Sequence record: PZ172995.1
Reading direction: 5' to 3' (one strand)
DNA: 64,000 nt
Source of the DNA: a phage
Positions within the stretch are counted from its first letter, which is position 1; each line of letters begins with the position of its first letter. Made by a program: the position numbers and the translations under genes. A model generated the notes under the pieces. It was not told the DNA's origin and made no database searches. It saw only the letters and a list, made by a program, of their open reading frames with translations. Below, piece by piece: positions 2,637-16,475 of this stretch.

Positions 2637-2690
2637 ATTCGCTACCTTCTAAGTTCCTACAAAGGGGCTATCAAGTAACCCCTCAAGTTG

Positions 2691-2915
2691 TTACTCAGAC
2701 TTTTCAGTCTTCTTATCAGATTTCTTACTAGTCTTCTTCTCAGCTTTCTGCTCAGGTTCCTTCTCAGAAGTTGCCTTGATAACCATATCAAGAAGCTCTG
2801 ATAAGTCACTCTTCAGCAAAGTAACAGGCTGCTCATTGTAGAAGTTTTTGTCAAGATAAACTTTGAACTCTTCAATAGAAGGAAATCCAAAAATTGGTAC
2901 AGGTGTCTTAGTCAT
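2691..2915 (-). CDS. hypothetical small lysine-rich protein
   Basis: ORF with GGAGA RBS; K/E-rich C-terminus. Confidence 0.5.
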   Translation of the reverse strand: MTKTPVPIFGFPSIEEFKVYLDKNFYNEQPVTLLKSDLSELLDMVIKATSEKEPEQKAEKKTSKKSDKKTEKSE

Positions 2916-2991
2916 TACTTAGTTTCTCCATAGGCATCTTTCAAGATTGCCTTGTTAATCATTTCAGCGATTGCAAAACGAACACATACAG

Positions 2992-3495
2992 CTATAATTG
3001 TAGGTTGCATTCTTTACTTACCTCTTCAAGTTTAACCTCAGAGTCCTTAAGTCGTTTCTTATGAACTCTAAATCTCATTAGTGCGATGATGATACCAACT
3101 AAAGGAACAGCATACAAGTACCAGACATCATATACCTTTGCAGTAATCTGTGTAATGGTCAAGTCTTGAGCTATGGAACTGATTGCTGATACTGCCAGTA
3201 ATGTTGCTAAGAAAAATGCCAGTACCATTACCGTACTTAAACAACCTCTGGCATGGTGTTCATGCTTAATGCACTTATTCTTTTCGTCAACAACCCTATT
3301 GTAGTCGTTTGTAAAGTCTCTGTAGAAAGCTTTCAAGTATTCTTTATTGTAGCCTTCAAAGCAACCTGTACCGTACCAATAATCACCACCAAAATGTGCT
3401 ATGATACCAGTATCCCCATTTGGTTTAGTTACTCTCAAAGATGTGTGATGACGAGTATCTTGATAGTCTATTTTGTATCTTTCTTCGTAAATCAT
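2992..3495 (-). CDS. hypothetical membrane protein (two predicted TM helices near C-terminus)
   Basis: Track start 3525 is GTG without RBS; ATG at 3495 has GAGAGGGA RBS and ATGA overlap with upstream stop; hydrophobic segments VMVLAFFLATLLAV and AVPLVGIIIALM. Confidence 0.6.
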   Translation of the reverse strand: MIYEERYKIDYQDTRHHTSLRVTKPNGDTGIIAHFGGDYWYGTGCFEGYNKEYLKAFYRDFTNDYNRVVDEKNKCIKHEHHARGCLSTVMVLAFFLATLLAVSAISSIAQDLTITQITAKVYDVWYLYAVPLVGIIIALMRFRVHKKRLKDSEVKLEEVSKECNLQL

Positions 3496-3710
3496 TTCCC
3501 AATCCCTCTCAATCGTTTGTTCCACTCAAGGTCAACAAGTCTTTGTAGGACTTTCCCTCTAGGTGTTACACCTTTTAAATCTGCATCATAACAATGGTAA
3601 AAGTCACCTTCAGCGTGTTTACCATAGCATTTTCTGATGTTCTGACTCCTACGATACTGCTCTAACAGGGACAGTTTGTAGTAATCTTCAACTGTAGTTA
3701 GTTTTTTCAT
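3492..3710 (-). CDS. hypothetical protein
   Basis: ORF, ATG start, coupled to neighbours. Confidence 0.5.
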   Translation of the reverse strand: MKKLTTVEDYYKLSLLEQYRRSQNIRKCYGKHAEGDFYHCYDADLKGVTPRGKVLQRLVDLEWNKRLRGIGK

Positions 3711-4252
3711 TCTTTCACCATAGCATTTCTGAACTGACGTTGAGTTTCTCTTGTAATTTCGTCTGGAGTAAACCCTGCTTTCAGCATATCTCTGAAAAGA
3801 ACTTCTAAGTGATTCTTTTCAATAATGTAAATTGCATTCTGCACAGATGTTTTAAGTTCCTTCAGGTCACTGCTAATTTCTTCACACTTGTTGATAATCT
3901 CTGTATCAACTTTCTTAAAGACTGGCATAGCATATCGACAACCACTATTAGCAGCATCCATGAAAAATTTAAAAGATTCCTCAGAGTCCTTTAAAGCAAT
4001 CCCGATAAAGTTCTTGTAAGCACCTGTGAAAGCTAAAGACTCAATCTCAGCAGTTGAGTACACAGTTCCTGCGCACAGTCTTGCAGAGGTACTAAATGTG
4101 TAGCTTTGTGTTATGTCAAAGTCTAAGTTCTTCAGTGGTCGAAAATAAACTGTGCCAGTATGCGAGACATGTGTTACAACAGCCTCCACACTCTTTGAAG
4201 GGTTCTGTTTAACATACAAAATAATTTTATCGTGTTCTTTCACTTTAGGCAT
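3707..4252 (-). CDS. hypothetical protein
   Basis: ORF with GGAGA RBS. Confidence 0.6.
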   Translation of the reverse strand: MPKVKEHDKIILYVKQNPSKSVEAVVTHVSHTGTVYFRPLKNLDFDITQSYTFSTSARLCAGTVYSTAEIESLAFTGAYKNFIGIALKDSEESFKFFMDAANSGCRYAMPVFKKVDTEIINKCEEISSDLKELKTSVQNAIYIIEKNHLEVLFRDMLKAGFTPDEITRETQRQFRNAMVKE

Positions 4253-4324
4253 ATCTATTCTCCAGAAACTAAAAAGGGAACTACCTCTCGATAGCTCCCA
4301 TCATAGTTAATATTGTATATTCGG

Positions 4325-4906
4325 TCAAGAGTATTTTTTAGGCAGTAATGCGCTACGCTTGTTACTCTCTTCACTCAATAGTGCAATAAATTCATCGCCT
4401 TTCCCTTTCCACGGACTGAATGTAGGGATATGCTCTCGGATAGCCTCAATCACTGTTTTCAGGGCGTTGTTCTTTAACCACCAATCAGACACTGCCGAAG
4501 CTACAATGTAGTAAGCACCATCATCTGTGAAGATTGGCTCAGAGATACATGGTGAAATCATAGTGGTAATGATAGAACCATTATTCATGTAGTATGTTCT
4601 TTTTTCAACCTTGTCAAGAAGTTTATGAAGGTCTGCAAAGAGACTTACCACCTCTTTATGGTCAATATCTTTTTCAAGATTTGCCCTGTATTTCAATAGT
4701 GCAGCATCAACCTCTTTATCATTGAATTTGAAGTATTGGACTTCTTCATTCACACATACACTAATGTTGTTGGTGTTTATCGTCAATTTGCACAGTTTGA
4801 CTGGAGAGTTGATGTTGGTCTGGAAAAGTGCTACACAGCCTTCTACATTCCCGAAATGTTTGACTAATGTAACTTCTGGTTGAATGTGTTCATGCTCTTC
4901 TGACAT
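4325..4906 (-). CDS. hypothetical protein
   Basis: ORF with GAGGA RBS. Confidence 0.6.
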   Translation of the reverse strand: MSEEHEHIQPEVTLVKHFGNVEGCVALFQTNINSPVKLCKLTINTNNISVCVNEEVQYFKFNDKEVDAALLKYRANLEKDIDHKEVVSLFADLHKLLDKVEKRTYYMNNGSIITTMISPCISEPIFTDDGAYYIVASAVSDWWLKNNALKTVIEAIREHIPTFSPWKGKGDEFIALLSEESNKRSALLPKKYS

Positions 4907-5250
4907 TATAGTTTCCTCATTAAATACTTTTTAAGTTGTGTGTTAGGTTTCTCAAAAACTTCTATAGAAGATATCTTGACAGATTCACCACGCATACCAG
5001 TGTGTTTGAAAATATAGTACTCCAACATACCTATGTATTTTGCTGGTAAGTCATACTTGACGTACACTGTTACAGAATCTTCAAATTCAACAACCTTTGT
5101 ACCATCTTTGTAGTTAAACTCTTTAGGATGGTTGTAATTGTCGATGTCGTACATTAAAAAGAGTCTTTTCCGTTGCATGTCAAGCTTATTGGTTAAAGAC
5201 TCTTTGATATCTGAGAAGTTTTTATAGACTATGACATGGAGCTTACTCAT
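4906..5250 (-). CDS. hypothetical protein
   Basis: ORF with GAGAG RBS; start overlaps upstream stop. Confidence 0.6.
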   Translation of the reverse strand: MSKLHVIVYKNFSDIKESLTNKLDMQRKRLFLMYDIDNYNHPKEFNYKDGTKVVEFEDSVTVYVKYDLPAKYIGMLEYYIFKHTGMRGESVKISSIEVFEKPNTQLKKYLMRKL

Positions 5251-5536
5251 CGTTAAACTCTCTGACGAAGAAATAGTTGACTTTGTTATTACCTACCATA
5301 AGGTCAAAGCAGGTGTTCTCAAAAGGTTTGTTGTAGGCATCATATGAAGTGTACGTATCAGCTACTTGTTTAGTATTGAGCTTTTTACTTGATGGATTTA
5401 AGAGGCCACCATACAGTTTCTTGATAGCCTCTTCTACAACAGACCAGATGATTTCGTCAGTAATTTCTTCGTACAGGTCAAGTTCACGCTCTAGTGAGAA
5501 GTCACAAATAGGGAAAATAACCTGTACTTTACTCAT
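5243..5536 (-). CDS. hypothetical protein
   Basis: ORF; weak RBS. Confidence 0.5.
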   Translation of the reverse strand: MSKVQVIFPICDFSLERELDLYEEITDEIIWSVVEEAIKKLYGGLLNPSSKKLNTKQVADTYTSYDAYNKPFENTCFDLMVGNNKVNYFFVREFNDE

Positions 5537-5931
5537 TAGCGAATAACCTGTGTGACTTGAATTGCTTCAGTTACGGACAAATCACCTACTTTCTCTTCTT
5601 TGATAAAAGTGAAGGTGAGTTCAACAGGTTCTTGCTCTTCTTGCTCAACTGGAATACCGTTAAGCTCATCAAAGATTGATTGGGTAGTCCAGTCTTCTCC
5701 ACCATCTGGATAGTGGATGGCATAAAGAGGAAACTCTAAATTATACCAAGCAAAAACAGGACAACCGTCTGCATCATCTCGGCATCTGTGGAGGTACGTA
5801 TTTGTACCTTCAAAATGCAAATGAAGATTGCCATTCTTCTCAAATAGAAGAGCATCTCGCAGGTCTAGTTCCTCATTTTCGCTGTAACGACTGACATCAA
5901 CTTTAACGTGGATATGACTGTTATTATTCAT
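5536..5931 (-). CDS. hypothetical protein
   Basis: ORF with GAGAGAGG RBS. Confidence 0.6.
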   Translation of the reverse strand: MNNNSHIHVKVDVSRYSENEELDLRDALLFEKNGNLHLHFEGTNTYLHRCRDDADGCPVFAWYNLEFPLYAIHYPDGGEDWTTQSIFDELNGIPVEQEEQEPVELTFTFIKEEKVGDLSVTEAIQVTQVIR

Positions 5932-6322
5932 AAAAACCTCTCTCTGCTTGTTCGATTTTTGCTCTTAAAGTTTCGCAATGCTGTAAATGGTAGTTAGCTT
6001 CTTGTTCATGTGTTGCTAACTGCCTTTCAAGAACAGTTTTATAGTAACCTGCAAGTTGCTCTTTTGTCAATGGGTGCTCTGAAATAATATCAAGTCCACT
6101 TTCACCAAGAGGATTGAATTGTCCATGCTCATTGACATTGTAAGTCTCAAACTTGAACATACCATTGTTCACAGACTCAATAGGTGACAGTTCAACAAGC
6201 TCTACAGTAAACCGTGTATACACCTTGTCGCCTCTTGAAACTACATTGTTTCCAATGATGCGTACAAGCGAACCATTACGAGTGTACTTAAAAGTCCCAA
6301 AGTCACTAGCCCAAAGCTTCAT
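5924..6322 (-). CDS. hypothetical protein
   Basis: ORF with AAGGAGA RBS. Confidence 0.6.
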   Translation of the reverse strand: MKLWASDFGTFKYTRNGSLVRIIGNNVVSRGDKVYTRFTVELVELSPIESVNNGMFKFETYNVNEHGQFNPLGESGLDIISEHPLTKEQLAGYYKTVLERQLATHEQEANYHLQHCETLRAKIEQAERGFYE

Positions 6323-6327
6323 AGTTT

Positions 6328-6362
6328 TCTCCTTAGAAAATAAAAAAGGCTCCCGAAGGAGC
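6328..6362 (-). terminator. Rho-independent terminator downstream of endolysin gene
   Basis: Minus-strand hairpin GGCTCC-TTCG-GGAGCC followed by a T-run. Confidence 0.7.
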
Positions 6363-6373
6363 CTATGAAGATA

Positions 6374-6838
6374 TTACTTTGGGTATACACTGTCAAGATA
6401 AATGTCAGCTTCCATTCTACGTCTGTTTTTCAGACCGTTTGAAGTGACCTTCTTACCTTTGACTGTAACCTTGTTCCACCACTGCATAGCTTCTGCACAA
6501 CCTACCTTATTACCAGCATTGTGACGCTTGATAAATGTAGAATCCTGCATAGCTGTGATACCGATGTTGTATGTTTCACTTACAAGTGCATCAAACTCAT
6601 TCTGAGAAGTTGGAACATTGATAGCTTTGTTCACTGCTGCAACGAATTTCTCAACATCTGCGAGAAGATACTGTTCAGCTTGTTCAGCAGTAATTTTCAT
6701 ACCCATCTTAACAGGTTTTTCGTCAATACTGATTGTACCATACCCGATTGTTGGGATTCCGGCAGAGTCTTCGTAAGCCTCTAACTTCAGACCTTCAAAG
6801 AACTTAATAGCTTCTAAACCTTTTCTTGAGAGTTGCAT
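6374..6838 (-). CDS. endolysin, T4-lysozyme-like (glycoside hydrolase family 24)
   Basis: N-terminal LEAYxDxAGIPTIGYG signature and overall T4 lysozyme-like layout in the 154-aa translation. Confidence 0.85.
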   Translation of the reverse strand: MQLSRKGLEAIKFFEGLKLEAYEDSAGIPTIGYGTISIDEKPVKMGMKITAEQAEQYLLADVEKFVAAVNKAINVPTSQNEFDALVSETYNIGITAMQDSTFIKRHNAGNKVGCAEAMQWWNKVTVKGKKVTSNGLKNRRRMEADIYLDSVYPK

Positions 6839-7722
6839 TATACCTCCCCTGTTGGGTTAACTGTAACTGTTGCTGCATTAGATGTCACAGAGCCACCTGC
6901 ACCAGTAACTACACAGGTGTAGCTTCCTGCGTCAGCAGTGGTTGCACCTTCTTTGGTGTAAGTTGCAGCAGTTGCGTCTGGGATGACTTCCTCACCTTTC
7001 TTCCACTGGTAACCTGTTGCACCAGTAGCTACAACACTTAGTGTCAAGGCAGAACCTTCAGTGATTTCTTGATTGGCTGGTTGTTGAGTGATAACTGGCA
7101 AAGCATTCACGGTTACTGTTGCTGCATCTGAGGTGACACTTGTCCCGCCCTCTCCAGATACAACGCAAGTGTATGAACCAGCATCAGAAGGAGCTACCGA
7201 CTGTTTTGTGTAAGTTGCAGAAGTGGCACTGGAGATATCCTCACCATCTTTCTTCCACTGATAACCAGTGGCATTAGATGCAACAACACTCAGAGTAAGC
7301 GTTCCACCTTCATTGACTGTTTGGTTTGTTGGTTGCTGAGTGATTGATGGTGGTGTGATGGCATCTTTCAACTTAGCGTTCAGCATTGAAAAAGGTTTAA
7401 CCCTTGCCAGCCATTCACAGTAAATTGTGTCAACATCTTTACCGTTGATGATTGCATACTGTAAATCCATGAAGAAATCAGCAGTCCTCATCTGTGCACC
7501 AACACTGTAAAGGAGTTCATCACTAAAAGGAACTTTGTAGTCTGGTTTGTAGTCAAACTTCTTAACCTCTGCGATATCAGCTTCAGGCCAATATGAGCTA
7601 TAGGTGAGTGGTAAAATAGCTTCTTGATATGTTCTAAAATCATATCTCTTACCAGCCTTTACATTTGCGATGAAACCCTTCACAAATTCTTTGAAGTCTG
7701 GGTAAGTCTTTGCTTTAATCAT
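6838..7722 (-). CDS. protein with two tandem Ig-like domains and an N-terminal domain paralogous to the upstream gene
   Basis: Two repeats of about 85 aa, each with YQWKK...DAGSYTCVV; N-terminus aligns with 7719..8090 product (FFMDLQYAI vs FLMDIQYVI); start overlaps upstream stop. Confidence 0.7.
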   Translation of the reverse strand: MIKAKTYPDFKEFVKGFIANVKAGKRYDFRTYQEAILPLTYSSYWPEADIAEVKKFDYKPDYKVPFSDELLYSVGAQMRTADFFMDLQYAIINGKDVDTIYCEWLARVKPFSMLNAKLKDAITPPSITQQPTNQTVNEGGTLTLSVVASNATGYQWKKDGEDISSATSATYTKQSVAPSDAGSYTCVVSGEGGTSVTSDAATVTVNALPVITQQPANQEITEGSALTLSVVATGATGYQWKKGEEVIPDATAATYTKEGATTADAGSYTCVVTGAGGSVTSNAATVTVNPTGEV

Positions 7723-8090
7723 TTCTTTTTAGCCTCTAAACGTGCGTTTAATCTAAAATAGCCTTTATGTTGTGGAGACACGTCACCAACAACGATACCT
7801 TCAACTTTATAACCTTTACCGATTACATACTGGATATCCATAAGAAATGTACCAAGTCCTACAATGTGGAACATTGGATATAATAACTTATCTGAATCTG
7901 GGAGATTAATGTCTGGGTTGTAGGTAGGTTGTTTACTAGTAGGTGTAATATCTTCTTCAGGCCATTTACTTAGTCTCCATGTCAAAGGTGTTGGGATAAC
8001 ATCATTAAGATTATATCTCTCACCTCTCTCCACGGAATTGATATAGGATTGTAGGAAGCAATAAAAGTCTTTTGCACTCTTAGCCTTCAT
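7719..8090 (-). CDS. hypothetical protein, paralog of N-terminal domain of the Ig-like protein
   Basis: Visible similarity to residues 1-110 of the 6838..7722 product; AAGGA RBS. Confidence 0.65.
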   Translation of the reverse strand: MKAKSAKDFYCFLQSYINSVERGERYNLNDVIPTPLTWRLSKWPEEDITPTSKQPTYNPDINLPDSDKLLYPMFHIVGLGTFLMDIQYVIGKGYKVEGIVVGDVSPQHKGYFRLNARLEAKKK

Positions 8091-8100
8091 TAAATATCCT

Positions 8101-8130
8101 TATAAATAGATAAAGGGGCATTAGCCCCTA
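8101..8130 (-). terminator. putative Rho-independent terminator
   Basis: Hairpin AGGGGC-ATTA-GCCCCT with T-rich tail on the minus strand. Confidence 0.45.
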
Positions 8131-8137
8131 TTTATAC

Positions 8138-8728
8138 TTAAGCTTTGGTCTTAAGTAGGTTCTTAAGTTTTTTGAGATTCATGCTCTCGTCAAACTTAAA
8201 ACCAAATCCATTGACATAATCAATGAACTCGGATTTCTTACTAAGTGATAGCGCGTAACTCATATCAAAGTTATTACTTGTTTCTGCGTCTGGGCTAGAG
8301 TTCACATCAAATGAAATTTCTGTAGGCTCTTGCTTGCTACTTCTCATATTATCAATCAATAGGCATGTATAGTTCGCTGGATAGAAGTTTGCACTACCAT
8401 CAACATACCCATACTTATTGTTGTGAATAAGGTTTGAAAATACCTTAAGAAATGTTTCTGAGTCGTGGCATACAAGTTTGAATTGACTGCACTCTCCAAG
8501 AGCCACTAGAGAGTAAGGGCTTTCACTATCAATGTCATAGTTTGGATTTAATGCTGTAACCGTCACACGCATCAAGTTATTAGCAATAGTCTTCTGTTTA
8601 AAAGAATTTGGGACATAGTGAAGACCTCTATCACACTGATTAACTAACTCTTTAAGTAGGTCATTTGCATAGGGTGAATTAATTGATACAGAGCCGTCAC
8701 TATTGTAATTAAAACTTACTGTTAACAT
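8138..8728 (-). CDS. hypothetical protein
   Basis: ORF with AGGAGA RBS. Confidence 0.65.
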   Translation of the reverse strand: MLTVSFNYNSDGSVSINSPYANDLLKELVNQCDRGLHYVPNSFKQKTIANNLMRVTVTALNPNYDIDSESPYSLVALGECSQFKLVCHDSETFLKVFSNLIHNNKYGYVDGSANFYPANYTCLLIDNMRSSKQEPTEISFDVNSSPDAETSNNFDMSYALSLSKKSEFIDYVNGFGFKFDESMNLKKLKNLLKTKA

Positions 8729-8955
8729 TTTTCAGTTCTCCTGCGATTTATGATTTTGCTGCAATAGAGAAACGAAGTAAACTCACTGGAAGAAACCATC
8801 AAGTGCTGTTCACTAGATTGAGCCATTGCCCTGAAATACATTCCAGTCAAAGCATCGTAGTGACTATTCTTTCCAATTGAGGTTATATAGCCATGACTCT
8901 TTGCAGTTTGATATAAATCTATAATATCTGCGATTTCTAATTGGGAACTACACAT
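8722..8955 (-). CDS. hypothetical protein
   Basis: ORF with AGAGGA RBS. Confidence 0.55.
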   Translation of the reverse strand: MCSSQLEIADIIDLYQTAKSHGYITSIGKNSHYDALTGMYFRAMAQSSEQHLMVSSSEFTSFLYCSKIINRRRTEKC

Positions 8956-9098
8956 AGATAATCCTCTTGTCTTCTGTAATTTTGAAAGAACAGGTACAGA
9001 CCAATTTCAGAGGATGAATAGTAGAGTAACTCTACCCTTTTTGATTCCTTACAGTGATTGGTATTTTTACCTTTCTTCGGGTTGTTTGATTTTCTCAT
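8937..9098 (-). CDS. hypothetical small basic protein
   Basis: Track start 9119 not supported; ATG at 9098 has AAGGAG RBS. Confidence 0.5.
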   Translation of the reverse strand: MRKSNNPKKGKNTNHCKESKRVELLYYSSSEIGLYLFFQNYRRQEDYLCVVPN

Positions 9099-9192
9099 TA
9101 AGTCTCCTTTGTAGAACAAGGCAGACCTACAGCTTTAAGTAAGATGGTACAGTAATCCATACAACAAGTCAAGAACTATTGCAAGTTAAAAA

Positions 9193-9220
9193 AGTTGTTG
9201 ACAAAGTACTTGACAAGGTG
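9193..9220 (+). promoter_or_regulatory. conserved 24-nt element with tandem TTGACAA (GTTGACAAAGTACTTGACAAGGTGT) in the divergent switch region
   Basis: Near-identical copy at 51326-51353 in the other divergent switch region; contains two -35-like hexamers. Confidence 0.55.
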
Positions 9221-9347
9221 TAGGCTTATAAATACTTAGAAGATAACTTAAAAGGTTCCTCTAAAAAGGCTATTTAAACAGATATCTTTCTGGATATCTA
9301 TCTTTTATCTTAAAAGCCTTTTAAGAGGTCTTATAAGAGGCATACCA

Positions 9348-9800: not shown

Positions 9801-11216
9801 ATGAGCGAATTATTTAAACATGCGCACCTTCATGCAGGTCGAACTGAAAATGGTGCTGTAAACCATACTTCATCAATGTCTGCTCTGGTGGACTTTTACA
9901 AAGCCGCTGGCTCAAGCCGTAGCAATGTAGAAATCTTACCAGACCTGTTCTACAAAGCTTTGCGTGAGGATGTTGATGTTGCAGTTCGTATTTTACTGCA
10001 TATGCGAGATGTACGAGAAGGTATGGGTGAGCGTAAAGCTTTCCGAACTGTTTTACTTCAAGCGATTGAAGATAAGGTTTTAGAACCTACACAGGTTCTT
10101 CGCATTATGGATAAGATTGCAGAACTTGGTCGTTTTGATGACTTCAAAATCTTCGTAGGCACTCGTTTTGAGACAGATGCCTTCAAACATTTAGAAGCAG
10201 CATTACTAGACCCTGCAACAGCAGGTTTAGCAGCTAAGTGGTTACCACGAGTAAAACCACGCCACAAACAGTTTGTAAAACGTTTCTGTAAGTTTGCAAA
10301 CTTAAGCGAGAAGGAGTATCGCACACTGTTATCTGCACTGTCTGATACGGTTGAGCAAAAAATCTCTGCTAATGAGTTTGGTAAGATTGACTACAGCAAG
10401 GTTCCTTCACTCGCTGCTGCACGTTACCAAAAACTCTTTAACCGTAAAGATGGGGAACGTTACAAAGCTTACGTTGAGTCACTCTCAAAGGGTGAGGCTA
10501 AGATTAACGCTGGTGCTGTTTACCCATACGATGTGATTAAATCTATCAAGTATGGTAATGCAGATGTGGCTAATGAGCAGTGGAAAGCACTACCAAACTG
10601 GATGGCAGAAGGTGAGAACATCTTGTGTATGACTGATGTTTCAAGTTCAATGTCTTGGGTGAGTCTTGGTTCAATCACTGCCCTTGATGTTGGTGTATCC
10701 CTTGCCTTGTATGTAGCAGAACGCAACACAGGTTGCTTTAAAGATGAGTTAATGGTCTATTCAACAAACCCTCATTTCATTGAACTGAGTGGTGATTTAC
10801 GAAACCGTCATCGTCAGGTAATGCGTCATGTTGAATATGGTTCAACTAACTTACAAGCAGCTTTTGACCGCATTCTTGAAATAGGTAAGAGAAACAACTT
10901 GACTCAGAAAGATATGCCAAGTAAGCTTATTATCTTCTCTGATATGGAGTTTAATCAGGTTGATGGTGCAAATGGTCGTACAAACTTTGAAGCAATTCAG
11001 AGTAAGTACAAAAAAGCTGGATACGAAATGCCACAACTAGTATTCTGGTACTTAGCAAACCGTAATGGTACTTGCGAAGTATCTGTTAAGGATAATGGTG
11101 TAGCAATGGTATCAGGGTTCTCTCCAGCCACTTTAAAAGCTCTGCTTGGTGGTGAGAAGTTTGACCCAATCAGCGTAATGCTCAAAGCAGTAATGATTGA
11201 CCGTTACATCTGGTAA
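9801..11216 (+). CDS. DUF2828-like protein with C-terminal vWA/MIDAS-like motif (possible TROVE/Ro60-like fold)
   Basis: N-terminal RTENGAVNHTSSMSAL motif and DVSSSMS (DxSxS) motif in the 471-aa translation; strong RBS; family assignment from recalled signatures, not a search. Confidence 0.6.
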   Translation: MSELFKHAHLHAGRTENGAVNHTSSMSALVDFYKAAGSSRSNVEILPDLFYKALREDVDVAVRILLHMRDVREGMGERKAFRTVLLQAIEDKVLEPTQVLRIMDKIAELGRFDDFKIFVGTRFETDAFKHLEAALLDPATAGLAAKWLPRVKPRHKQFVKRFCKFANLSEKEYRTLLSALSDTVEQKISANEFGKIDYSKVPSLAAARYQKLFNRKDGERYKAYVESLSKGEAKINAGAVYPYDVIKSIKYGNADVANEQWKALPNWMAEGENILCMTDVSSSMSWVSLGSITALDVGVSLALYVAERNTGCFKDELMVYSTNPHFIELSGDLRNRHRQVMRHVEYGSTNLQAAFDRILEIGKRNNLTQKDMPSKLIIFSDMEFNQVDGANGRTNFEAIQSKYKKAGYEMPQLVFWYLANRNGTCEVSVKDNGVAMVSGFSPATLKALLGGEKFDPISVMLKAVMIDRYIW

Positions 11217-11228
11217 AAAGTTTTAAAA

Positions 11229-11263
11229 AGGGTATTGACAATGTGTTTGATACCCTTTAATAT
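11229..11263 (+). promoter_or_regulatory. sigma70-like promoter (TTGACA, 17 nt, TAATAT) with flanking palindrome, upstream of tRNA array
   Basis: TTGACA 11235-11240, TAATAT 11258-11263; AAGGGTAT / ATACCCTT inverted repeat around the -35. Confidence 0.6.
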
Positions 11264-11380: not shown

Positions 11381-11457
11381 CTCTGTTTAGCTCAGCTTGG
11401 TAGAGCGTTCCGTTTGGGGCGGTAAGGCCGGAGGTTCAAGTCCTCCAACAGAGACCA
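11381..11457 (+). tRNA. tRNA-Pro (TGG)
   Basis: Hand-folded cloverleaf: acceptor CTCTGTT/AACAGAG, anticodon loop TTTGGGG, T-arm GGAGG-TTCAAGT-CCTCC, CCA encoded. Confidence 0.75.
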
Positions 11458-11464
11458 AATTAAT

Positions 11465-11542
11465 GTTCCAGTAGACAAAACGGTAAAGTCACCACTCTTT
11501 CAAAGTGGATATTTGAGGGTTCAAATCCCTTCTGGAACGCCA
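11465..11542 (+). tRNA. tRNA-Glu (TTC)
   Basis: Acceptor GTTCCAG/CTGGAAC, anticodon stem CCACT/AGTGG with loop CTTTCAA, T-loop TTCAAAT, CCA encoded. Confidence 0.75.
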
Positions 11543-11547
11543 GTTTT

Positions 11548-11623
11548 GACAGAAGACCAATTACAGCAAACTTAATCTACTCATCTGACACGAAATCGGA
11601 CAAAGAAGATATTTGGTCTGGTC
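11548..11623 (+). ncRNA. conserved hairpin element, copy 1 (basal stem CAGAAGACC / GGTCTGG, loop with CAGCAA)
   Basis: GACAGAAGACCA pairs with TGGTCTGGTC around a loop of about 50 nt; same stem in three further copies. Confidence 0.5.
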
Positions 11624-11632
11624 ATTAAGAAT

Positions 11633-11709
11633 TGCGGGTATAGAGAAAGGGCGTCTCACATGTCTCATTAGCATGGTATCGGCAGGTTCGACTCCTGCAC
11701 CCGCCTCCA
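11633..11709 (+). tRNA. tRNA-Met (CAT), irregular acceptor stem
   Basis: D-stem GAGA/TCTC, anticodon stem CATGT/GCATG with loop CTCATTA, T-arm GCAGG-TTCGACT-CCTGC; acceptor pairing imperfect. Confidence 0.55.
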
Positions 11710-11714
11710 ATTTT

Positions 11715-11778
11715 GCAGAAGACCGTATGCAGCAACAAACTACTTTTTTTGCGGATAAAAGAAAAAACACGGTCTGGC
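11715..11778 (+). ncRNA. conserved hairpin element, copy 2
   Basis: GCAGAAGACCG ... CAGCAA ... CGGTCTGGC. Confidence 0.5.
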
Positions 11779-11788
11779 AATATATTAA

Positions 11789-11865
11789 GGTTAGGAAGCA
11801 CATAAGGTATGTGCGGTCGCCTGTTAAGCGAATGGCACAGGGTTCGAATCCCTGACTAACCGCCA
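11789..11865 (+). tRNA. tRNA-Asn (GTT)
   Basis: D-stem GCAC/GTGC, anticodon loop CTGTTAA, T-arm CAGGG-TTCGAAT-CCCTG, CCA encoded. Confidence 0.7.
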
Positions 11866-11874
11866 AATTTAAAT

Positions 11875-11962
11875 GTGTCGTTATCCCGTAGATGGTAGCG
11901 GTGGGGACTGTAAATCCCTTGTCATTGAGACTCGGTAGGTTCGACTCCTACACGGCACACCA
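11875..11962 (+). tRNA. tRNA-Tyr (GTA), long variable arm
   Basis: Acceptor GTGTCGT/ACGGCAC, anticodon loop CTGTAAA, long variable arm, T-arm GTAGG-TTCGACT-CCTAC, CCA encoded. Confidence 0.7.
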
Positions 11963-11968
11963 AATAAA

Positions 11969-12046
11969 GGTTATGTAGTTTAATCTGGTTAAAATACTCC
12001 CCTGTCACGGGAGATGATGAGGGTTCAAATCCCTTCGTAACCGCCA
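11969..12046 (+). tRNA. tRNA-Asp (GTC)
   Basis: Anticodon stem CTCCC/GGGAG with loop CTGTCAC, T-arm GAGGG-TTCAAAT-CCCTT, CCA encoded. Confidence 0.8.
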
Positions 12047-12129
12047 AATTATAATAAGTATTTCAAAATGATGTTTGAGAGGGCTATTTAGCCCCTCCCT
12101 TAAAGAGTTCTTACGAGTATTCTTTAAAG

Positions 12130-12212
12130 GAGCAGAAGACCAAATTCAGCAAGTACGTATGATATTTTCAAGCCAATTTAATTTTGAAAAAATTTAAAAC
12201 TTGGTCTGGCTC
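12130..12212 (+). ncRNA. conserved hairpin element, copy 3
   Basis: GAGCAGAAGACCAA pairs with TTGGTCTGGCTC; loop contains CAGCAA. Confidence 0.5.
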
Positions 12213-12221
12213 AACAAATTT

Positions 12222-12357
12222 ACAGAAGACCGTTTACAGCAAAACTTAAACAATCTATTTCTCCGGTAAAGAAAAGGCGAAGGTTCGATTCCTTCACTCG
12301 GCAGATGTCGAGTTGGTGTAATGGTAGCACTTAAGATGACAAACAACGGTCTGGTAA
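12222..12357 (+). ncRNA. conserved hairpin element, copy 4, enclosing a tRNA-like module (T-arm hairpin, acceptor-like hairpin, D-arm-like hairpin); candidate Y-RNA-like RNA
   Basis: Basal stem ACAGAAGACCGTT / AACGGTCTGGTA; inside: GAAGG-TTCGATT-CCTTC (12279-12295), ACTCGGC-AGAT-GTCGAGT (12296-12313), GTGT-AATGGTA-GCAC (12316-12330). Confidence 0.45.
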
Positions 12358-12503
12358 TTATCTTTGTAGGTGAGCTATTAAGCTTACTTGTGAGTATGCG
12401 ACCACAAAGGGTGAAAGGGCAAATTCTAGATTTAAACCCAACAAGGCACATCGCTACAGACCTTAAGCAAGTCTGGGTAGCTTATCTACAAAGATAATTT
12501 AAT

Positions 12504-12579
12504 GGAAGTGTAGCAGAATGGTGATGCGGCAGACTTTTAATCTGACAGGCGATGGGTTCGAATCCCTCCACTTCTACCA
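12504..12579 (+). tRNA. tRNA-Lys (TTT)
   Basis: Acceptor GGAAGTG/CACTTCT, anticodon loop CTTTTAA, T-loop TTCGAAT, CCA encoded; paralogous to the Lys(CTT) tRNA at 13820. Confidence 0.7.
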
Positions 12580-12583
12580 ATAT

Positions 12584-12660
12584 GGTTCAGTCGCAGATAA
12601 GGTAATGCAGGGGTCTCATAAGCCCTATGAATGTGGGTTCGATTCCCATCTGAACCTCCA
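12584..12660 (+). tRNA. tRNA with CAT anticodon (Met or lysidine-Ile)
   Basis: Acceptor GGTTCAG/CTGAACC, anticodon loop CTCATAA, T-arm GTGGG-TTCGATT-CCCAT, CCA encoded. Confidence 0.7.
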
Positions 12661-12661
12661 A

Positions 12662-12737
12662 GCTGGTATAGTTAAGAAGGTTATAACACTCCCCTGATAA
12701 GGGAATATCGGTGGTTCGATTCCACCTACCAGTACCA
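12662..12737 (+). tRNA. tRNA-Ile (GAT)
   Basis: D-stem GTTA/TAAC, anticodon loop CTGATAA, T-arm GGTGG-TTCGATT-CCACC, CCA encoded. Confidence 0.75.
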
Positions 12738-12752
12738 ATTTCAATAAAGTTG

Positions 12753-12781
12753 TTGACATTGATATGTGACTATTTTATAGT
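12753..12781 (+). promoter_or_regulatory. sigma70-like promoter (TTGACA, 17 nt, TATAGT) inside the tRNA array
   Basis: TTGACA 12753-12758, TATAGT 12776-12781; downstream about 300 nt has no tRNA or ORF. Confidence 0.55.
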
Positions 12782-12832
12782 AACTGAAAATGATTCAGCA
12801 TATGTATAATTCAAACACCAATACATGAGCGT

Positions 12833-12904
12833 TAGACGTAACACAATGTGGGGAAATTTGTTGTACATATTCTGAATAGTTTTCGTTGCGTAGCGTCTAT
12901 TTTG
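12833..12904 (+). terminator. putative structured element ending in a T-run (possible sRNA 3' end)
   Basis: TAGACG ... CGTCTA stem enclosing about 55 nt, followed by TTTTGC. Confidence 0.3.
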
Positions 12905-13074
12905 CAAATTTAAAATAAATGCAAACGACAATGTTTTTCTGGCAGTAGCTTGATAGGCTAAACACCAGTGAGGTCTTCCAATCCCTCATCAAAGAATTTG
13001 GCGTACTAGCCCACGGTATGATTAATAAGGTGGGCATCTTTAAGGGCTTTCTAAGAGAGTCTTTAAAGATTAAT

Positions 13075-13151
13075 GCACCCTTAGTTCAATTGGATAGAGC
13101 AACGGTCTTCTAAATCGTTAGTTACAGGTTCGAATCCTGTAGGGTGTGCCA
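13075..13151 (+). tRNA. tRNA-Arg (TCT)
   Basis: Acceptor GCACCCT/AGGGTGT, anticodon loop CTTCTAA, T-arm ACAGG-TTCGAAT-CCTGT, CCA encoded. Confidence 0.75.
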
Positions 13152-13293
13152 AATAGTTAGCAGATTGCTTAGACGACCTTATCGGGTCTCCGCGTAAGGA
13201 GGTGGTCTGTATCTCATGTTTTCCAGAACATGTAAATAATCTGAGAAGGGGCTTTACAGTGTTGCGAAAATACGGTAAGCTTCGAATTATAGT

Positions 13294-13376
13294 GTGGGAC
13301 GATGTTAAGACTCTAAGGCATGAGCAACGGCCTCCAAAACCGTTTCAAAGGGGTTCAACTCCTCCGTCCCATGCCA
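13294..13376 (+). tRNA. tRNA-Trp (CCA)-like, atypical length and D-region
   Basis: Acceptor GTGGGAC/GTCCCAT, anticodon loop CTCCAAA, T-loop TTCAACT, CCA encoded; about 7 nt longer than canonical. Confidence 0.45.
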
Positions 13377-13389
13377 AAGTCTTATTAGG

Positions 13390-13477
13390 GGTAGGTAGCG
13401 GCTAATGGCAGCCAAACAGTCTTGAAAACTGTTGCAACTGTAGAGATACGGTGAGGGTTCGACTCCTTTACTTACCA
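13390..13477 (+). tRNA. tRNA-Ser (TGA), long variable arm
   Basis: Acceptor GGTAGGT/ACTTACC, anticodon stem ACAGT/ACTGT with loop CTTGAAA, variable arm about 20 nt, T-loop TTCGACT. Confidence 0.7.
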
Positions 13478-13634
13478 CCTAATAAGATTTTACACCGTCC
13501 ATGCTTGCTCGCATTTTCGGTTTATCCCTCGTGTATTGTCGTACACACTGATAAAGCACCTAGTAGGTGTCACGGAGAAGAGATAATATCAAGCTCTCCA
13601 AAGGTTCTAGTCACCGGATTAAACAAGACTATGC

Positions 13635-13656
13635 AAAGACCAATTTAGGTCTTTTT
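13635..13656 (+). terminator. putative Rho-independent terminator
   Basis: AAAGACC-AATTTA-GGTCTTT followed by TTT. Confidence 0.45.
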
Positions 13657-13735
13657 AGAGGGCTTCTAAGGTTATTACAGCTTGTTGTGGAACCTTGTTG
13701 CTTAGGTTCTTAGAAGTTCTCTAAAAAGATTTAAT

Positions 13736-13812
13736 GCACCTATAGCCCAACTGGTAGAGGCAGCAGACTTAGAATCTGCTCAGTGTGAGTTCGAATCTCT
13801 CTAGGTGTACCA
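13736..13812 (+). tRNA. tRNA with TAG anticodon (Leu by anticodon), short variable arm
   Basis: Acceptor GCACCTA/TAGGTGT, anticodon stem GCAGA/TCTGC with loop CTTAGAA, T-loop TTCGAAT, A73, CCA encoded. Confidence 0.65.
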
Positions 13813-13819
13813 AATTAAT

Positions 13820-13895
13820 GCAGGTGTAGCAAAATGGTTATGCGGCTGACTCTTAATCAGTAAGACGATGGGTTCAATTCCCTCCACCTGTACCA
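13820..13895 (+). tRNA. tRNA-Lys (CTT)
   Basis: Acceptor GCAGGTG/CACCTGT, anticodon loop CTCTTAA, T-loop TTCAATT, CCA encoded. Confidence 0.7.
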
Positions 13896-13901
13896 AACAT
13901 T

Positions 13902-13977
13902 GGGGTCATAGTTTATATGGTTAAAATTCGAGTTTTGCAAACTTGGGAACTGAGTTCAATTCTCAGTGACTCCACCA
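13902..13977 (+). tRNA. tRNA-Ala (TGC)
   Basis: Acceptor GGGGTCA/TGACTCC, anticodon loop TTTGCAA, T-arm CTGAG-TTCAATT-CTCAG, CCA encoded. Confidence 0.7.
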
Positions 13978-13983
13978 ATTAGT

Positions 13984-14058
13984 GCATCCATAGTTTAAAC
14001 GGGAAAATTACAGTCTTCCAAACTGAGGTTGAGGGTTCGATTCCCTCTGGATGCTCCA
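13984..14058 (+). tRNA. tRNA-Gly (TCC)
   Basis: Acceptor GCATCCA/TGGATGC, anticodon loop CTTCCAA, T-loop TTCGATT, CCA encoded. Confidence 0.75.
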
Positions 14059-14065
14059 AATTAAT

Positions 14066-14141
14066 GCTCCTATCGTATAATTGGCTATTACGGTTGCCTT
14101 GTAAGTAACTTATCAGGGTTCGAATCCTTGTGGGAGCACCA
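14066..14141 (+). tRNA. tRNA-Thr (TGT)
   Basis: Acceptor GCTCCTA/TGGGAGC, anticodon loop CTTGTAA, T-arm CAGGG-TTCGAAT-CCTTG, CCA encoded. Confidence 0.7.
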
Positions 14142-14238
14142 ATTTAGAGGTCAAGTGAAAGACCGCTTTGAGTCAACTGAAGACCGTAACAAATCCCACG
14201 GAGTTGAGTTAGCGGCACAACTTCAGACCTCTTTCCAC

Positions 14239-14313
14239 ACTCGCTTAGTTTATATGGTAAAACATCACCCTTACAAGATGAAGAAAAAGGTTCAAGTCCT
14301 TTAGTGAGTACCA
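14239..14313 (+). tRNA. tRNA-Val (TAC)
   Basis: D-stem GTTT/AAAC, anticodon loop CTTACAA, T-arm AAAGG-TTCAAGT-CCTTT, CCA encoded. Confidence 0.7.
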
Positions 14314-14314
14314 T

Positions 14315-14392
14315 GTTCCAGTATCCCAATTGGCAGAGGATGCAAGCTCAAACCTTGCACTAGTGACGGTTCGAATCCGTCTTGGAACACCA
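14315..14392 (+). tRNA. tRNA with CAA anticodon (Leu by anticodon), short variable arm
   Basis: Acceptor GTTCCAG/TTGGAAC, anticodon stem GCAAG/CTTGC with loop CTCAAAC, T-arm GACGG-TTCGAAT-CCGTC, A73, CCA encoded. Confidence 0.65.
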
Positions 14393-14397
14393 ATTTT

Positions 14398-14473
14398 GCA
14401 GGATTAGTTCAAATGGATAGAGCAACAGTCTACGAAGCTGTTAATAGGGGTTCGAGTCCCTTATCCTGCGCCA
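14398..14473 (+). tRNA. tRNA-Arg (ACG)
   Basis: Acceptor GCAGGAT/ATCCTGC, anticodon loop CTACGAA, T-loop TTCGAGT, CCA encoded. Confidence 0.75.
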
Positions 14474-14491
14474 GATAAGTAAGAGTGATTT

Positions 14492-14734
14492 ATGCAAACA
14501 TTAATCGTCGTTGAACATGAAAATTCCAATAGCATTGAGTTTGTAAGGGTTCCCACTATAGATACCCACATTTTCTTGAAAGTAGGCTGGGAATGTGACC
14601 CAATAAGAGTAGAAAAATTTATTGGTCATTACTTTGGTGGAAGACAACTTAAAAGTGTTAATTTTGAGACAATGTTACCAGAAAACTCAGAAACAAATAA
14701 TAATGTTTACCTCCTTACAAGGATTAGACAATGA
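14492..14734 (+). CDS. hypothetical protein encoded inside the tRNA array
   Basis: ORF with RBS; ATGA overlap with the next gene. Confidence 0.5.
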   Translation: MQTLIVVEHENSNSIEFVRVPTIDTHIFLKVGWECDPIRVEKFIGHYFGGRQLKSVNFETMLPENSETNNNVYLLTRIRQ

Positions 14735-15288
14735 GATATTTGAAGTATGTTTCATGGATTTTCTTAGCTTTGCTAGAGCCATTTGCAGCAATCTTAGCAG
14801 TCATCTTAGCACCTTTTGTAGTTCTATTCTACAGTGAGAAGAGAGGACACTTACCTTTCGGCTTCAGATGGATGGAAACATATGATAACCCAATTGATGG
14901 TGATAAAGGTCATGTCGAACGATGGGCTAAGATTAGAAAGATTGGTAAGCTTGGTATCTATATGCAGAGAGTTGGTTGGCTCTGGAGAAACAAAGCTTAT
15001 AACTTCTCTTACCATGTGTTAGGAAGAGATGTAAAAGATGTTACTAAGTGGAAAGGTAATATCAATGTAAGTTCTAACCCTGAAGATAATCAGACAGGTT
15101 ATCTCCTAATGTGGAACAGTAATGCTTGGGGATTATTCGCTTTTATCCCATCAATTAAACTCTTTGGTAAGCAATTCTACTGGAGAATTTATGTTGGATG
15201 GAAACTTAAAAGTGTTGTTCCAAAAGAAAGAGCATTCTCAAGGGAAAGAGTTATGTTGGCATTCTTTATTCATCCACTGAGAAAGTAA
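14731..15288 (+). CDS. hypothetical Trp-rich membrane protein encoded inside the tRNA array
   Basis: N-terminal hydrophobic helix WIFLALLEPFAAILAVILAPFVVLF in the 185-aa translation. Confidence 0.6.
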   Translation: MRYLKYVSWIFLALLEPFAAILAVILAPFVVLFYSEKRGHLPFGFRWMETYDNPIDGDKGHVERWAKIRKIGKLGIYMQRVGWLWRNKAYNFSYHVLGRDVKDVTKWKGNINVSSNPEDNQTGYLLMWNSNAWGLFAFIPSIKLFGKQFYWRIYVGWKLKSVVPKERAFSRERVMLAFFIHPLRK

Positions 15289-15296
15289 AGATTTAA

Positions 15297-15372
15297 AGGG
15301 GATTAGTTTACAAGGTTAAAACCTCGGTCTTTGAAATCGAAGAAGTTGGTTCAATTCCAACATCCCCCGCCA
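15297..15372 (+). tRNA. tRNA-Gln (TTG)
   Basis: Anticodon stem TCGGT/ATCGA with loop CTTTGAA, T-arm GTTGG-TTCAATT-CCAAC, CCA encoded. Confidence 0.7.
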
Positions 15373-15374
15373 AT

Positions 15375-15453
15375 GCTCCATTACTCCAATTGGCAGAGAG
15401 GCCAGACTTAAAATCTGTGTTATGTATCGGTTCGAATCCGATATGGAGTACCA
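15375..15453 (+). tRNA. tRNA with TAA anticodon (Leu by anticodon), short variable arm
   Basis: Acceptor GCTCCAT/ATGGAGT, anticodon loop CTTAAAA, T-arm ATCGG-TTCGAAT-CCGAT, A73, CCA encoded. Confidence 0.65.
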
Positions 15454-15458
15454 AATTT

Positions 15459-15534
15459 AGCGGTATAGCATAACTGGCAATGCAGCAGTCTCTGAAGCTG
15501 TCTTATTAAGGTTCAAATCCTTATGCCGCTGCCA
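15459..15534 (+). tRNA. tRNA-Gln (CTG)
   Basis: D-stem GCAT/ATGC, anticodon loop CTCTGAA, T-arm TAAGG-TTCAAAT-CCTTA, CCA encoded. Confidence 0.7.
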
Positions 15535-15565
15535 CTTCTAAGGATTCTTACGAGAGTCCTTAAAT

Positions 15566-15641
15566 GTGGCCTTATCATAAATGGTAATGACCCATGCTGT
15601 GAACATGGTCTATACGGGTTCAAATCCCGTAGGTCACCCCA
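15566..15641 (+). tRNA. tRNA-His (GTG)
   Basis: D-stem TCAT/ATGA, anticodon stem CCATG/CATGG with loop CTGTGAA, T-arm ACGGG-TTCAAAT-CCCGT, CCA encoded. Confidence 0.75.
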
Positions 15642-15646
15642 ATTTA

Positions 15647-15723: not shown

Positions 15724-15739
15724 ATTTCAAAGGTGCTTA

Positions 15740-16474: not shown

Positions 16475-16475
16475 T

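Follow-up and report, generated by a model that had tools for sequence, protein, structure and literature searches.

Putative sigma-70 promoters with a conserved second TTGACA in the spacer at both divergent gene-block boundaries of a Felix O1-like phage

The 64,000-nt stretch of phage DNA analyzed here (sequence record PZ172995.1; hereafter the window) carries two nearly identical copies of a short element built around two TTGACA hexamers, each placed where a leftward and a rightward gene block diverge. This arrangement raises the question of whether the element is a regulator-binding site, a promoter for a phage-specific factor or a promoter for the host polymerase. The window represents a Felix O1-like myovirus of the genus Felixounavirus (two 3-kb samples are 97-98% identical to E. 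coli and Salmonella phages such as Shy, KEP2 and JN01), for which about 250 related records were available. Open reading frame (ORF) calling divided the window into four gene blocks: (i) a leftward block (1192-9119, minus strand), (ii) a rightward block (9348-40602, plus strand) that holds 26 transfer RNA (tRNA) genes at 11381-16648, (iii) a second leftward block (40639-51300, minus strand), whose final gene encodes the DNA polymerase, and (iv) a second rightward block (51528-63980, plus strand). These blocks agree with the four "transcriptons" of the Felix O1 paper. We propose, with a probability of about 0.75, that each element comprises the -35 box and the spacer of a host sigma-70 promoter, and that transcription of the two rightward units begins at these two putative promoters (P_R1 and P_R2).

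The element, GTTGACAAWGTACTTGACAAGGTGT (25 nt), has exactly two matches in the window, both on the plus strand (9197-9221, site 1; 51330-51354, site 2). The copies are identical at 24 of 25 positions, the sole difference being A/T at position 9. No further match was found in the window with up to three mismatches, and none in 100 dinucleotide shuffles. An earlier, sequence-only reading of the window had described a 24-nt element at 9193-9220 and 51326-51353; the two copies are real, the pattern is 25 nt long, and those positions lie approximately 4 nt too far to the left. The same reading placed both copies in intergenic regions between diverging blocks, and this was confirmed at both sites, with each copy oriented into the rightward block. 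The region of site 1 is bounded by the leftward block (reaching 9119 by ORF call, with the real first ATG at 9098, preceded by AAGGAG) and by the rightward block, which begins at 9348, while that of site 2 separates the DNA polymerase gene (ORF call to 51300) from the rightward gene at 51528. When 75 nt around site 1 served as the query, two places per genome were matched in nearly all of the approximately 250 Felixounavirus records; the element is not scattered over non-regulatory positions and is confined to the two intergenic copies. The likeness of the two regions exceeds the 25-mer and includes an upstream A-tract and ACTTAAAAGGTT, located 48-49 nt downstream and followed by ACAGATA.

Site 1 reads AAAAAA-GTTG-TTGACA-AAGTAC-TTGACA-AGGTG-TAGGCT on the plus strand. 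Its UP-like A-tract (9188-9193), at approximately -45 to -40, matches the position of the proximal UP subsite, which is defined at -45 to -37 (PMC2613000), and an A-tract is present there in all relatives. The first TTGACA (9198-9203), the putative -35 box of P_R1, agrees with the consensus at six of six positions and is invariant in the distinct site-1 sequences. It is separated by 17 nt from the -10 hexamer TAGGCT (9221-9226), and the second TTGACA (9210-9215, approximately -23 to -18) lies within this spacer. The predicted start, at approximately 9232-9234, is followed by a leader of 115 nt (9233-9347; GC content 0.30) with a 12-nt-phased TTAAnAG array, which extends to the ATG (9348) of a gene encoding a protein with a DUF5681 domain (Pfam).

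Site 2, also on the plus strand, reads AAAAA-GCAAG-TTGACA-ATGTAC-TTGACA-AGGTGT-TAATCT, with TG at -15/-14. The UP-like A-tract AAAAA (51321-51325) is followed by GCAAG, and AAAAAGCAAG is invariant in 17 distinct site-2 sequences. The first TTGACA (51331-51336), the putative -35 box of P_R2, is again a perfect (6/6) and invariant hexamer, located 18 nt from TAATCT; the second TTGACA (51343-51348) lies in the spacer, and the hexamer 17 nt further on is AAGTGG, which is no -10 box. The TGn motif and the -10 hexamer (TG-T-TAATCT; 51352-51360) place the predicted start at approximately 51366-51368. The tgTGnT sequence corresponds to the "-15 element" in the mix-and-match view of sigma-70 promoters (PMC2613000). 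The leader (51367-51527; 161 nt, GC content 0.23) carries an 11-12-nt-phased TTAAnAG array and reaches the ATG at 51528. Both sites therefore combine the features expected of sigma-70 promoters: a -35 hexamer with six of six matches, a spacer of 17 +/- 1 nt, an UP-like A/T tract and an intergenic position kept in relatives. Neither site contains a hairpin (DNA folds of both strands were no more stable than shuffles, z at least -0.3), and the only Rfam families detected in the window are tRNAs, none of them at either site.

According to the proposed scheme, the alpha subunits of the host polymerase would contact the upstream A-tract, and the first TTGACA would act as a perfect -35 box. The TAnnnT -10 box is weak but stands at the right distance of 17 or 18 nt and is preceded by TGn at site 2; strong contacts at the UP-like tract and the -35 box would offset its weakness. 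Host polymerase would start at approximately 9233 and 51367 and transcribe the AT-rich leaders of 115 and 161 nt. P_R1 would then serve the DUF5681 gene, an RNA-binding-protein gene, the tRNA array and, further on, structural genes, and P_R2 would serve genes of replication and nucleotide metabolism. The second gene named for P_R1 (9801-11216, plus strand) is labelled in relatives as an RNA-binding, DUF2828 or vWFA protein and is located directly 5' of the tRNA array, in the operon of the site-1 promoter. The transcription starts and sigma-70 dependence of both promoters, as well as any role of the second hexamer, are deduced from sequence.

Comparison with relatives distinguishes the constant from the variable parts of the element. 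Both intergenic regions were compared with those of other Ounavirinae, i.e., Moogle-, Susp- and Kolesnikvirus, Hafnia phage Zyzzx, Pectobacterium phage Arno162, Yersinia phage P778 and Erwinia phages. In Felixouna-, Moogle- and Suspvirus the second TTGACA is located 12 nt downstream of the first at both sites. The 27 distinct sequences with this offset (window included) keep both hexamers and T-12, A-11 and T-7 of the -10 box invariant, with a linker that is free to vary. The linkers found are aagtac, aaggac, aagcac, aatgac, ttcctc and agcctc at site 1, and atgtac, atgcac, atacac, atgcgc, attcac, aagcac, aaccac, aatcac, aactgc and aataac at site 2; across genera the linker differs at up to five of six positions, and the second hexamer is unchanged at both sites. 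The -10 hexamers of site-1 orthologues are TAGGCT, TAGCCT, TAAGTT and TACTCT, all retaining T-12, A-11 and T-7, and those of site 2 are TAATCT or TAGTCT with TGT or TGG ahead. The more distant phage Zyzzx also has two hexamers at both sites, with offsets of 11 nt (site 1) and 10 nt (site 2), unrelated flanks and -10 boxes (TACTCT and TATTGT) located 17 nt from the first hexamer. How closely the two copies within a genome agree depends on the genus: 24 of 25 positions are identical in Felixounavirus, 22 of 25 in Suspvirus and 19 of 25 in Mooglevirus. Judged from these alignments, it is the hexamer pair, and not the 25-mer, that is deeply conserved.

The Erwinia, Pectobacterium and Yersinia relatives have a single TTGACA at the equivalent position, often with a better -10 box (TAGAAT, TAATGT, TACATT). 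At site 1 the layout is TTGACA-16-TAGAAT in Erwinia phage phiEa21-4 and TTGACA-17-TAAAGT in P778; at site 2 it is TTGACA-18-TACATT in Erwinia phage phiEa104 and Hafnia phage SPARTY, TTGACA-17-TAGGCT in Arno162 and TTGACA-17-TAATGT in P778. The first hexamer of the window aligns with this single TTGACA in the Erwinia and Yersinia phages (site 1) and in P778, Arno162 and phiEa104 (site 2). Moreover, the P778 sequence downstream of the site-2 -10 box aligns with the window (GAAGT..GTT..ACTTAACAG), and the first TTGACA would therefore be the ancestral -35 box. A -10-like hexamer in register with the second TTGACA at both sites was found in none of the compared Ounavirinae genomes, and this hexamer is therefore unlikely to be the -35 box of a second productive promoter. 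A further promoter with its -35 box in the second hexamer, or in the reverse complement TTGTCA, was likewise rejected, as no -10 box in register is conserved at both sites.

The comparative evidence thus indicates that the second hexamer is under selection of its own and does not act as the -35 box of a second productive promoter. It lies one helical turn downstream of the first hexamer and so on the same face of the helix, where sigma region 4 might use it for additional docking or a regulator might bind. As an auxiliary docking site, the role that we prefer, it would raise the capture of host polymerase or hold the polymerase in a poised register. The sequence-only reading had favored a shared regulator site or a promoter for a phage-specific factor over a simple sigma-70 promoter. 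For the element as a whole the evidence speaks against this view, since the canonical layout is kept at both sites in every Ounavirinae genus examined; the suspicion that the promoter is not a simple one survives in the tandem arrangement, with a second TTGACA conserved in the spacer and lacking a -10 box of its own.

The window offers an internal comparison for this assignment. It contains 74 exact TTGACA hexamers, 14 in non-coding DNA (12% of the window is non-coding) and 60 in coding DNA. A TAnnnT hexamer lies 16-18 nt downstream of 10 of the 14 non-coding hexamers, compared with 8 of the 60 in coding DNA (Fisher p = 4e-5). An A-tract is present as well at eight of these sites: seven, including sites 1 and 2, are non-coding and all aimed at downstream genes, and the eighth (20406) is coding. 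The second hexamers of both sites are among the few non-coding TTGACA sequences without a -10 box in register. A related single promoter on the minus strand (TTGACA at 48564-48559, 17 nt, TACCTT at 48541-48536) shares TTGACAAGGTG with the two sites. A third, imperfect copy of the doubled layout, TTGACA-atgtgt-TTGATA-ccctt-TAATAT (11235-11263, plus strand), is located ahead of the tRNA array. The hairpin GGGTAT..ATACCC encloses its TTGACA-N6-TTGATA, followed by TAATAT, so that the whole (11223-11263, plus strand), which separates the RNA-binding-protein gene from the tRNA array, combines a terminator with a putative promoter; in the Felix O1 paper this hairpin appears only as terminators t42/t43.

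Parts of these promoters have been annotated before. The Felix O1 paper describes promoter P41 as TTGACA-N15-TATAGG at 21515-21541; its -35 box is the first hexamer of site 1, for which Felix O1 itself has the sequence GGTATAGGCT. The paper reports no comparable sequence in the region between genes 96 and 97, contrary to our finding that this region of Felix O1 does contain the tandem element. In GenBank record NC_028825 the site-2 30-mer (first TTGACA-18-TAATCT) is annotated as a promoter, and a promoter is annotated at site 1 too, while record MZ726792 gives second TTGACA-15-AATACT as a promoter at site 1. In reverse transcription PCR of Felix O1, the expression of ORFs 41, 42, 96 and 97-99 peaked at 25 min, which puts them in a single class; the genes that come first after the two sites (ORFs 41, 42 and 97-99) thus share an expression class. 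This class, together with many internal terminators, leaves room for regulation.

The layout was also sought beyond Ounavirinae. An exact match to the extended core or to the shared upstream core occurred in none of 185,579 bacterial and archaeal genomes; the possibility that the element is a copy of a host promoter or regulatory site was rejected, as it matched neither these genomes nor complete E. coli genomes. The pattern TTGACAA-N4-CTTGACAAGGTGTA was found in three kinds of IMG/VR contigs besides Felix-like ones. In a gut-phage group (L007/L039/L062/L110) it lies within a coding region (VDKALDKVY) and was set aside as a chance match, as were most matches of TTGACAAnnnnnTTGACAAGG, which are coding (IDKAIDKA-type repeats). 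The second kind is a short contig (L085, 4.5 kb) with GGTGTATCGT. The third is an uncultured T4-like myovirus family whose closest cultured relatives are cyanophages (gp47 47-49% identical). In this family the intergenic region 5' of the gene 55 homologue contains AAAAAAGTTGTTGACAAAGnnCTTGACAAGGTGTA and then CATT, completing a TACATT -10 box. In one contig (L147; IMGVR_UViG_3300010334_001352) positions 1163-1197 are identical to site 1 at 35 of 35 positions, and its relatives vary only in the linker (AAGAGC, AAATGC, AAGTGC). Contigs L058, L095, L096, L121 and L136 carry a near-identical 35-nt stretch. In the T4-like contigs the promoter is directed away from gene 55 and is not followed by an ORF. 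The L147-type stretch could reflect horizontal transfer of a promoter cassette or strong convergence.

A broader scan of uncultured phages with AAAAAG-N3-4-TTGACA-N4-6-TTGACA-N6-TA (80% dereplication) yielded 86 stretches in 32 groups, of which 28 are non-Ounavirinae. Most of these stretches are intergenic, with TATAnT 17-18 nt from the first hexamer, and several have an ORF 23-50 nt after the predicted start. The control patterns gave 13 (reversed hexamer), 17 (reverse complement), 8 (second hexamer at linker 1-3) and 8 (second hexamer at linker 7-9) dereplicated groups. No link of the doubled -35 promoters to tRNA genes was found in 23 loci.

Several observations weigh against the proposed reading or parts of it. 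The sequence-only reading had called the -10 elements poor, and each hexamer indeed matches the consensus at just three of six positions; TAGGCT at 17 nt and TAATCT at 18 nt nevertheless keep T-12, A-11 and T-7. Our own promoter scan called neither site, as the weak -10 hexamers fell below its threshold. The downstream genes belong to the 25-min class and not to the earliest, which is unexpected for the strongest host-type promoters, and no transcription-start mapping in any Felixounavirus was found in the literature. Against a docking role of the second hexamer, polymerase bound there would face no -10 box and could equally well compete with productive binding. Outside Ounavirinae the excess of the doubled layout is modest (2- to 3.5-fold) and at most suggestive, since many of the 28 groups stem from homologous loci in related T4-like phages.

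Two alternatives concern the second hexamer itself. Together with its flank (CTTGACAAGGTG) it may be an operator for a phage DNA-binding protein that switches both rightward promoters, which would still be read by sigma-70; we consider this possible, if rather unlikely. Such a switch would suit the peak of the downstream genes at 25 min and not at 5 min, as well as the timing of phage transcription that the Felix O1 paper leaves unexplained. The 24 of 25 nucleotides shared by the two promoters, the third occurrence of CTTGACAAGGTG as the -35 box of the leftward promoter at 48564 and the 4+1+4 palindrome that can be read in CTTGACAAG also speak for it. The candidate protein is an XRE/Cro-type helix-turn-helix (HTH) protein (43233-43562, minus strand; Pfam HTH_3, E = 5e-11), encoded by a virulent phage. 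Its homologues (261 records) are of Felixouna-, Moogle- and Suspvirus type save for two weak (<60% identity) Zymomonas-labelled ones, which corresponds to the clade with the 12-nt offset, and none were found in the Erwinia, Pectobacterium, Hafnia or Yersinia relatives. This phyletic match, however, counts as one phylogenetic event, because the three genera form a single clade. Zyzzx has the tandem at both sites, yet a collection-wide tblastn search (E<=1e-3) gave no Hafnia-labelled HTH match, and neither did a local tblastn against Zyzzx bases 1-30000, which cover the syntenic leftward block. Offsets ranging from 10 to 12 nt are awkward for a dimer with a rigid geometry, Moogle- and Suspvirus have aacgtg and aagctg instead of the flank AAGGTG at site 1, and the doubled TTGACA of unrelated phages suggests a reader common to the hosts rather than a lineage-specific protein. 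The other alternative, which we regard as unlikely, takes the second hexamer as functionless and the identity of the 25-mers as a relic of duplication or gene conversion that carried the second TTGACA along. The genus-specific near-identity of the copies would fit this, as would the conservation of nearly the whole promoter region within the clade, and not of the second hexamer alone. A relic would hardly stay constant at both sites while up to five of six linker positions change across genera; Zyzzx retains the hexamer with a different offset and different flanks, and fixed hexamers with a variable linker recur in the unrelated T4-like family.

Three further explanations assign the two regions another function. 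Their use as transcription-primed or transcription-activated replication origins, each made up of a promoter and an AT-rich, repeat-containing region for unwinding (cf. oriF and oriG of T4), with the tandem hexamers and arrays being iteron-like, appears improbable. Both sites lie at divergent strand switches and at minima of the cumulative GC skew, but the skew follows the direction of transcription and therefore gives no independent information on origins. The leaders of 115-161 nt, with a GC content of 0.23-0.30 and 11-12-nt phased repeats, and the replication genes adjoining site 2 would suit an origin; phased arrays are, however, also present in other intergenic regions and at 1-1190, there are only two hexamer copies, and searchable sources yielded no origin data for these phages. 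Very improbable is a pair of overlapping promoters in which the second hexamer is the -35 box of a second productive one, as the MZ726792 feature implies. The AT-rich block TATAAATACT follows this hexamer at site 1, but any -10-like hexamer there lies 11-15 nt away, the hexamers 15-18 nt after it at site 2 are CGAAGT, GAAGTG, AAGTGG and AGTGGG, and no -10 box in register occurs in Susp- and Mooglevirus, Zyzzx or the non-Ounavirinae examples. Finally, we find scarcely credible the idea of the sequence-only reading that the element is a promoter for a phage-specific factor, be it of the T4 middle (MotA/AsiA) or the late (gp55) type. It could appeal to TATAAATA at 9227-9234 of site 1, and to the leftward -35 box of site 2, which reads CTTGCTTTT and is Mot box-like. 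Yet TATAAATA is absent from site 2, is not kept in Moogle- and Suspvirus and is not enriched in the window (6 observed vs. 3.8 expected), so that a T4-type late promoter was rejected. The rightward -35 box is a perfect TTGACA and not TGCTT, and no MotA-type box lies on the strand of the element. The Felix O1 authors found neither a phage polymerase nor known polymerase-modifying genes, and stated that temporal control was unknown; the annotation of NC_028825 contains no sigma-like product and no MotA or AsiA.

With host sigma-70 promoters as the preferred reading, the doubled -35 box can be compared with known systems. At the lambda PR' promoter a -35-like TTGACT downstream of the -10 box, beside a pause-inducing -10-like sequence, binds sigma region 4 again during Q loading. 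The likeness lies in a second -35-like hexamer near a phage promoter and in the use of sigma region 4 for regulation rather than initiation (docking being proposed here); the difference is that the hexamer studied here is in the spacer and that no Q-like gene or pause element was identified. The activators lambda cII and P22 C1 recognize TTGC-N6-TTGC direct repeats straddling the -35 region, and cII-dependent promoters have a poor -35 box. In both cases a promoter contains short direct repeats that are spaced by about one helical turn. The repeated unit of the present element, however, is TTGACA itself, with an offset of 10-12 nt; its first copy forms a consensus -35 box, and the second is located downstream of this box. 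The cII/C1 site is quoted as TTGN6TTGC (PMC4837284).

In layout the two promoters resemble the strong early sigma-70 promoters of virulent phages, such as those of T4, which combine UP, -35, TGn and -10 elements in a mix-and-match manner (PMC2613000). Shared features are the A-tract at approximately -45 to -38, the consensus -35 hexamer followed by a spacer of 17/18 nt, TGn in the case of site 2, and the location in front of operons. In such promoters, as proposed here, strong upstream contacts offset a weak -10 box. The promoters of the window differ by the conserved second perfect TTGACA in the spacer and by -10 boxes weaker than the classical examples. The middle promoters of T4, which have a MotA box centred at -30 and depend on sigma appropriation through AsiA and MotA, are similar in having an extra conserved motif 5' of a TAnnnT -10 box in a virulent myovirus. 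The Mot-box core is TGCTT (PMC4122927), however, whereas here TTGACA is present, at -23 to -18 and not -30, beside a normal -35 box, and the Felix O1 paper reports no motA or asiA. The PeSL cassettes of T4-type phages carry near-identical TTGACA-N17-TATAAT promoters with AT-rich upstream sequences, repeated within phages and shared between them (PMC2839356, PMC4122927). The element at 11223-11263 is such a hairpin-plus-promoter composite, and the 35/35 identity with the T4-like contig would fit a mobile cassette; on the other hand, no terminator-like hairpin lies beside site 1 or site 2, the two copies occupy conserved core positions instead of being numerous in hyperplastic regions, and PeSL cassettes are described without a doubled -35 box. 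No published description of a conserved second TTGACA in a promoter spacer, and no paper containing the motif strings, was found in the literature. The doubled -35 box (A-tract, TTGACA, 4-6 nt, TTGACA, 5-7 nt, -10 box) could, as a tentative conjecture that we consider rather unlikely, be a distinct and undescribed promoter design of virulent phages. Its second hexamer, one helical turn from the first, would be read by sigma region 4 so as to catch or park the host enzyme, and the design would be spread as a small cassette among unrelated phages. Such spread would explain both the 35/35 T4-like copy and the absence of the sequence from the 185,579 bacterial and archaeal genomes.

Each rightward promoter is arranged back-to-back with a candidate leftward promoter, and the two intergenic regions may therefore be regarded as divergent promoter pairs. 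At site 1 the promoter scan pointed to TTGACT (9172-9167), 17 nt and TACCAT (9149-9144) on the minus strand, a block that is identical in Moogle- and Suspvirus. At site 2 the putative leftward promoter of the DNA polymerase gene consists of TTGCTT (51329-51324), 17 nt and TAATGT (51306-51301) on the minus strand and abuts the first TTGACA; its orthologues read TTGCTT, 17 nt and TAATGT or TAGGGT. The DNA polymerase gene probably starts at the ATG at 51270 (minus strand) and not at the ORF call of 51300; this ATG is preceded by a GGGAG ribosome site, and the annotation of Shigella phage Sf19 uses it as the start. The leftward promoter candidate is located 24 nt ahead of this likely true start, and the predicted leftward transcription start, at approximately 51294, falls between 51270 and 51300.

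Other non-coding modules were observed in the window. CTTAAnAG / CTTAACAG arrays with an 11-12-nt phase, lying on the transcribed strand, are present at 9246-9340 and 51378-51520 (plus strand) and at 1-1190, 44320-44470 and 45580-45730 (minus strand). They fill the AT-rich leaders after both rightward promoters and a stretch of more than 1 kb without an ORF of at least 60 aa (1-1190), where TRF detected a period of 11 with 9.8 copies at 438-539 (autocorrelation z = 17). The leaders of Moogle- and Suspvirus and of Hafnia phage relatives contain similar arrays, and weaker ones are present in Yersinia, Pectobacterium and Erwinia phages. The arrays may bind a protein or RNA, form curved DNA or serve as an unwinding element. 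Two near-duplicate non-coding modules (44230-44500 and 45600-45870, minus strand) are located in leftward intergenic regions. Both contain G/T-rich repeats of 8-10 nt (GGTGTAAGGTGGTG type) and have the hairpin-like block gggtagttagtctcagctacattaaaatgagacttacc in common, after which ttttaaaagg..ttaagaggg follows. Among the database records, MG065668.1 (Campylobacter phage A126) and a Staphylococcus-labelled record contain Felixounavirus sequence (approximately 99% protein identity) and are probably mislabelled or contaminated.

The promoters at the two sites had thus been annotated in part, and the conserved doubled -35 box is, to our knowledge, new. The putative promoter at site 2 corrects the published claim that the polymerase-side intergenic region has no recognizable promoter. 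Felix O1-type phages are widely used for typing and biocontrol of Salmonella and E. coli, and the two predicted master rightward promoters with their leftward partners may serve as start points for transcript mapping and engineering. The second hexamer offers a testable case of a sigma-70 polymerase facing two docking sites one helical turn apart. If this hexamer is indeed functional, the doubled -35 box would represent a promoter design principle apparently common to phages of very different hosts.

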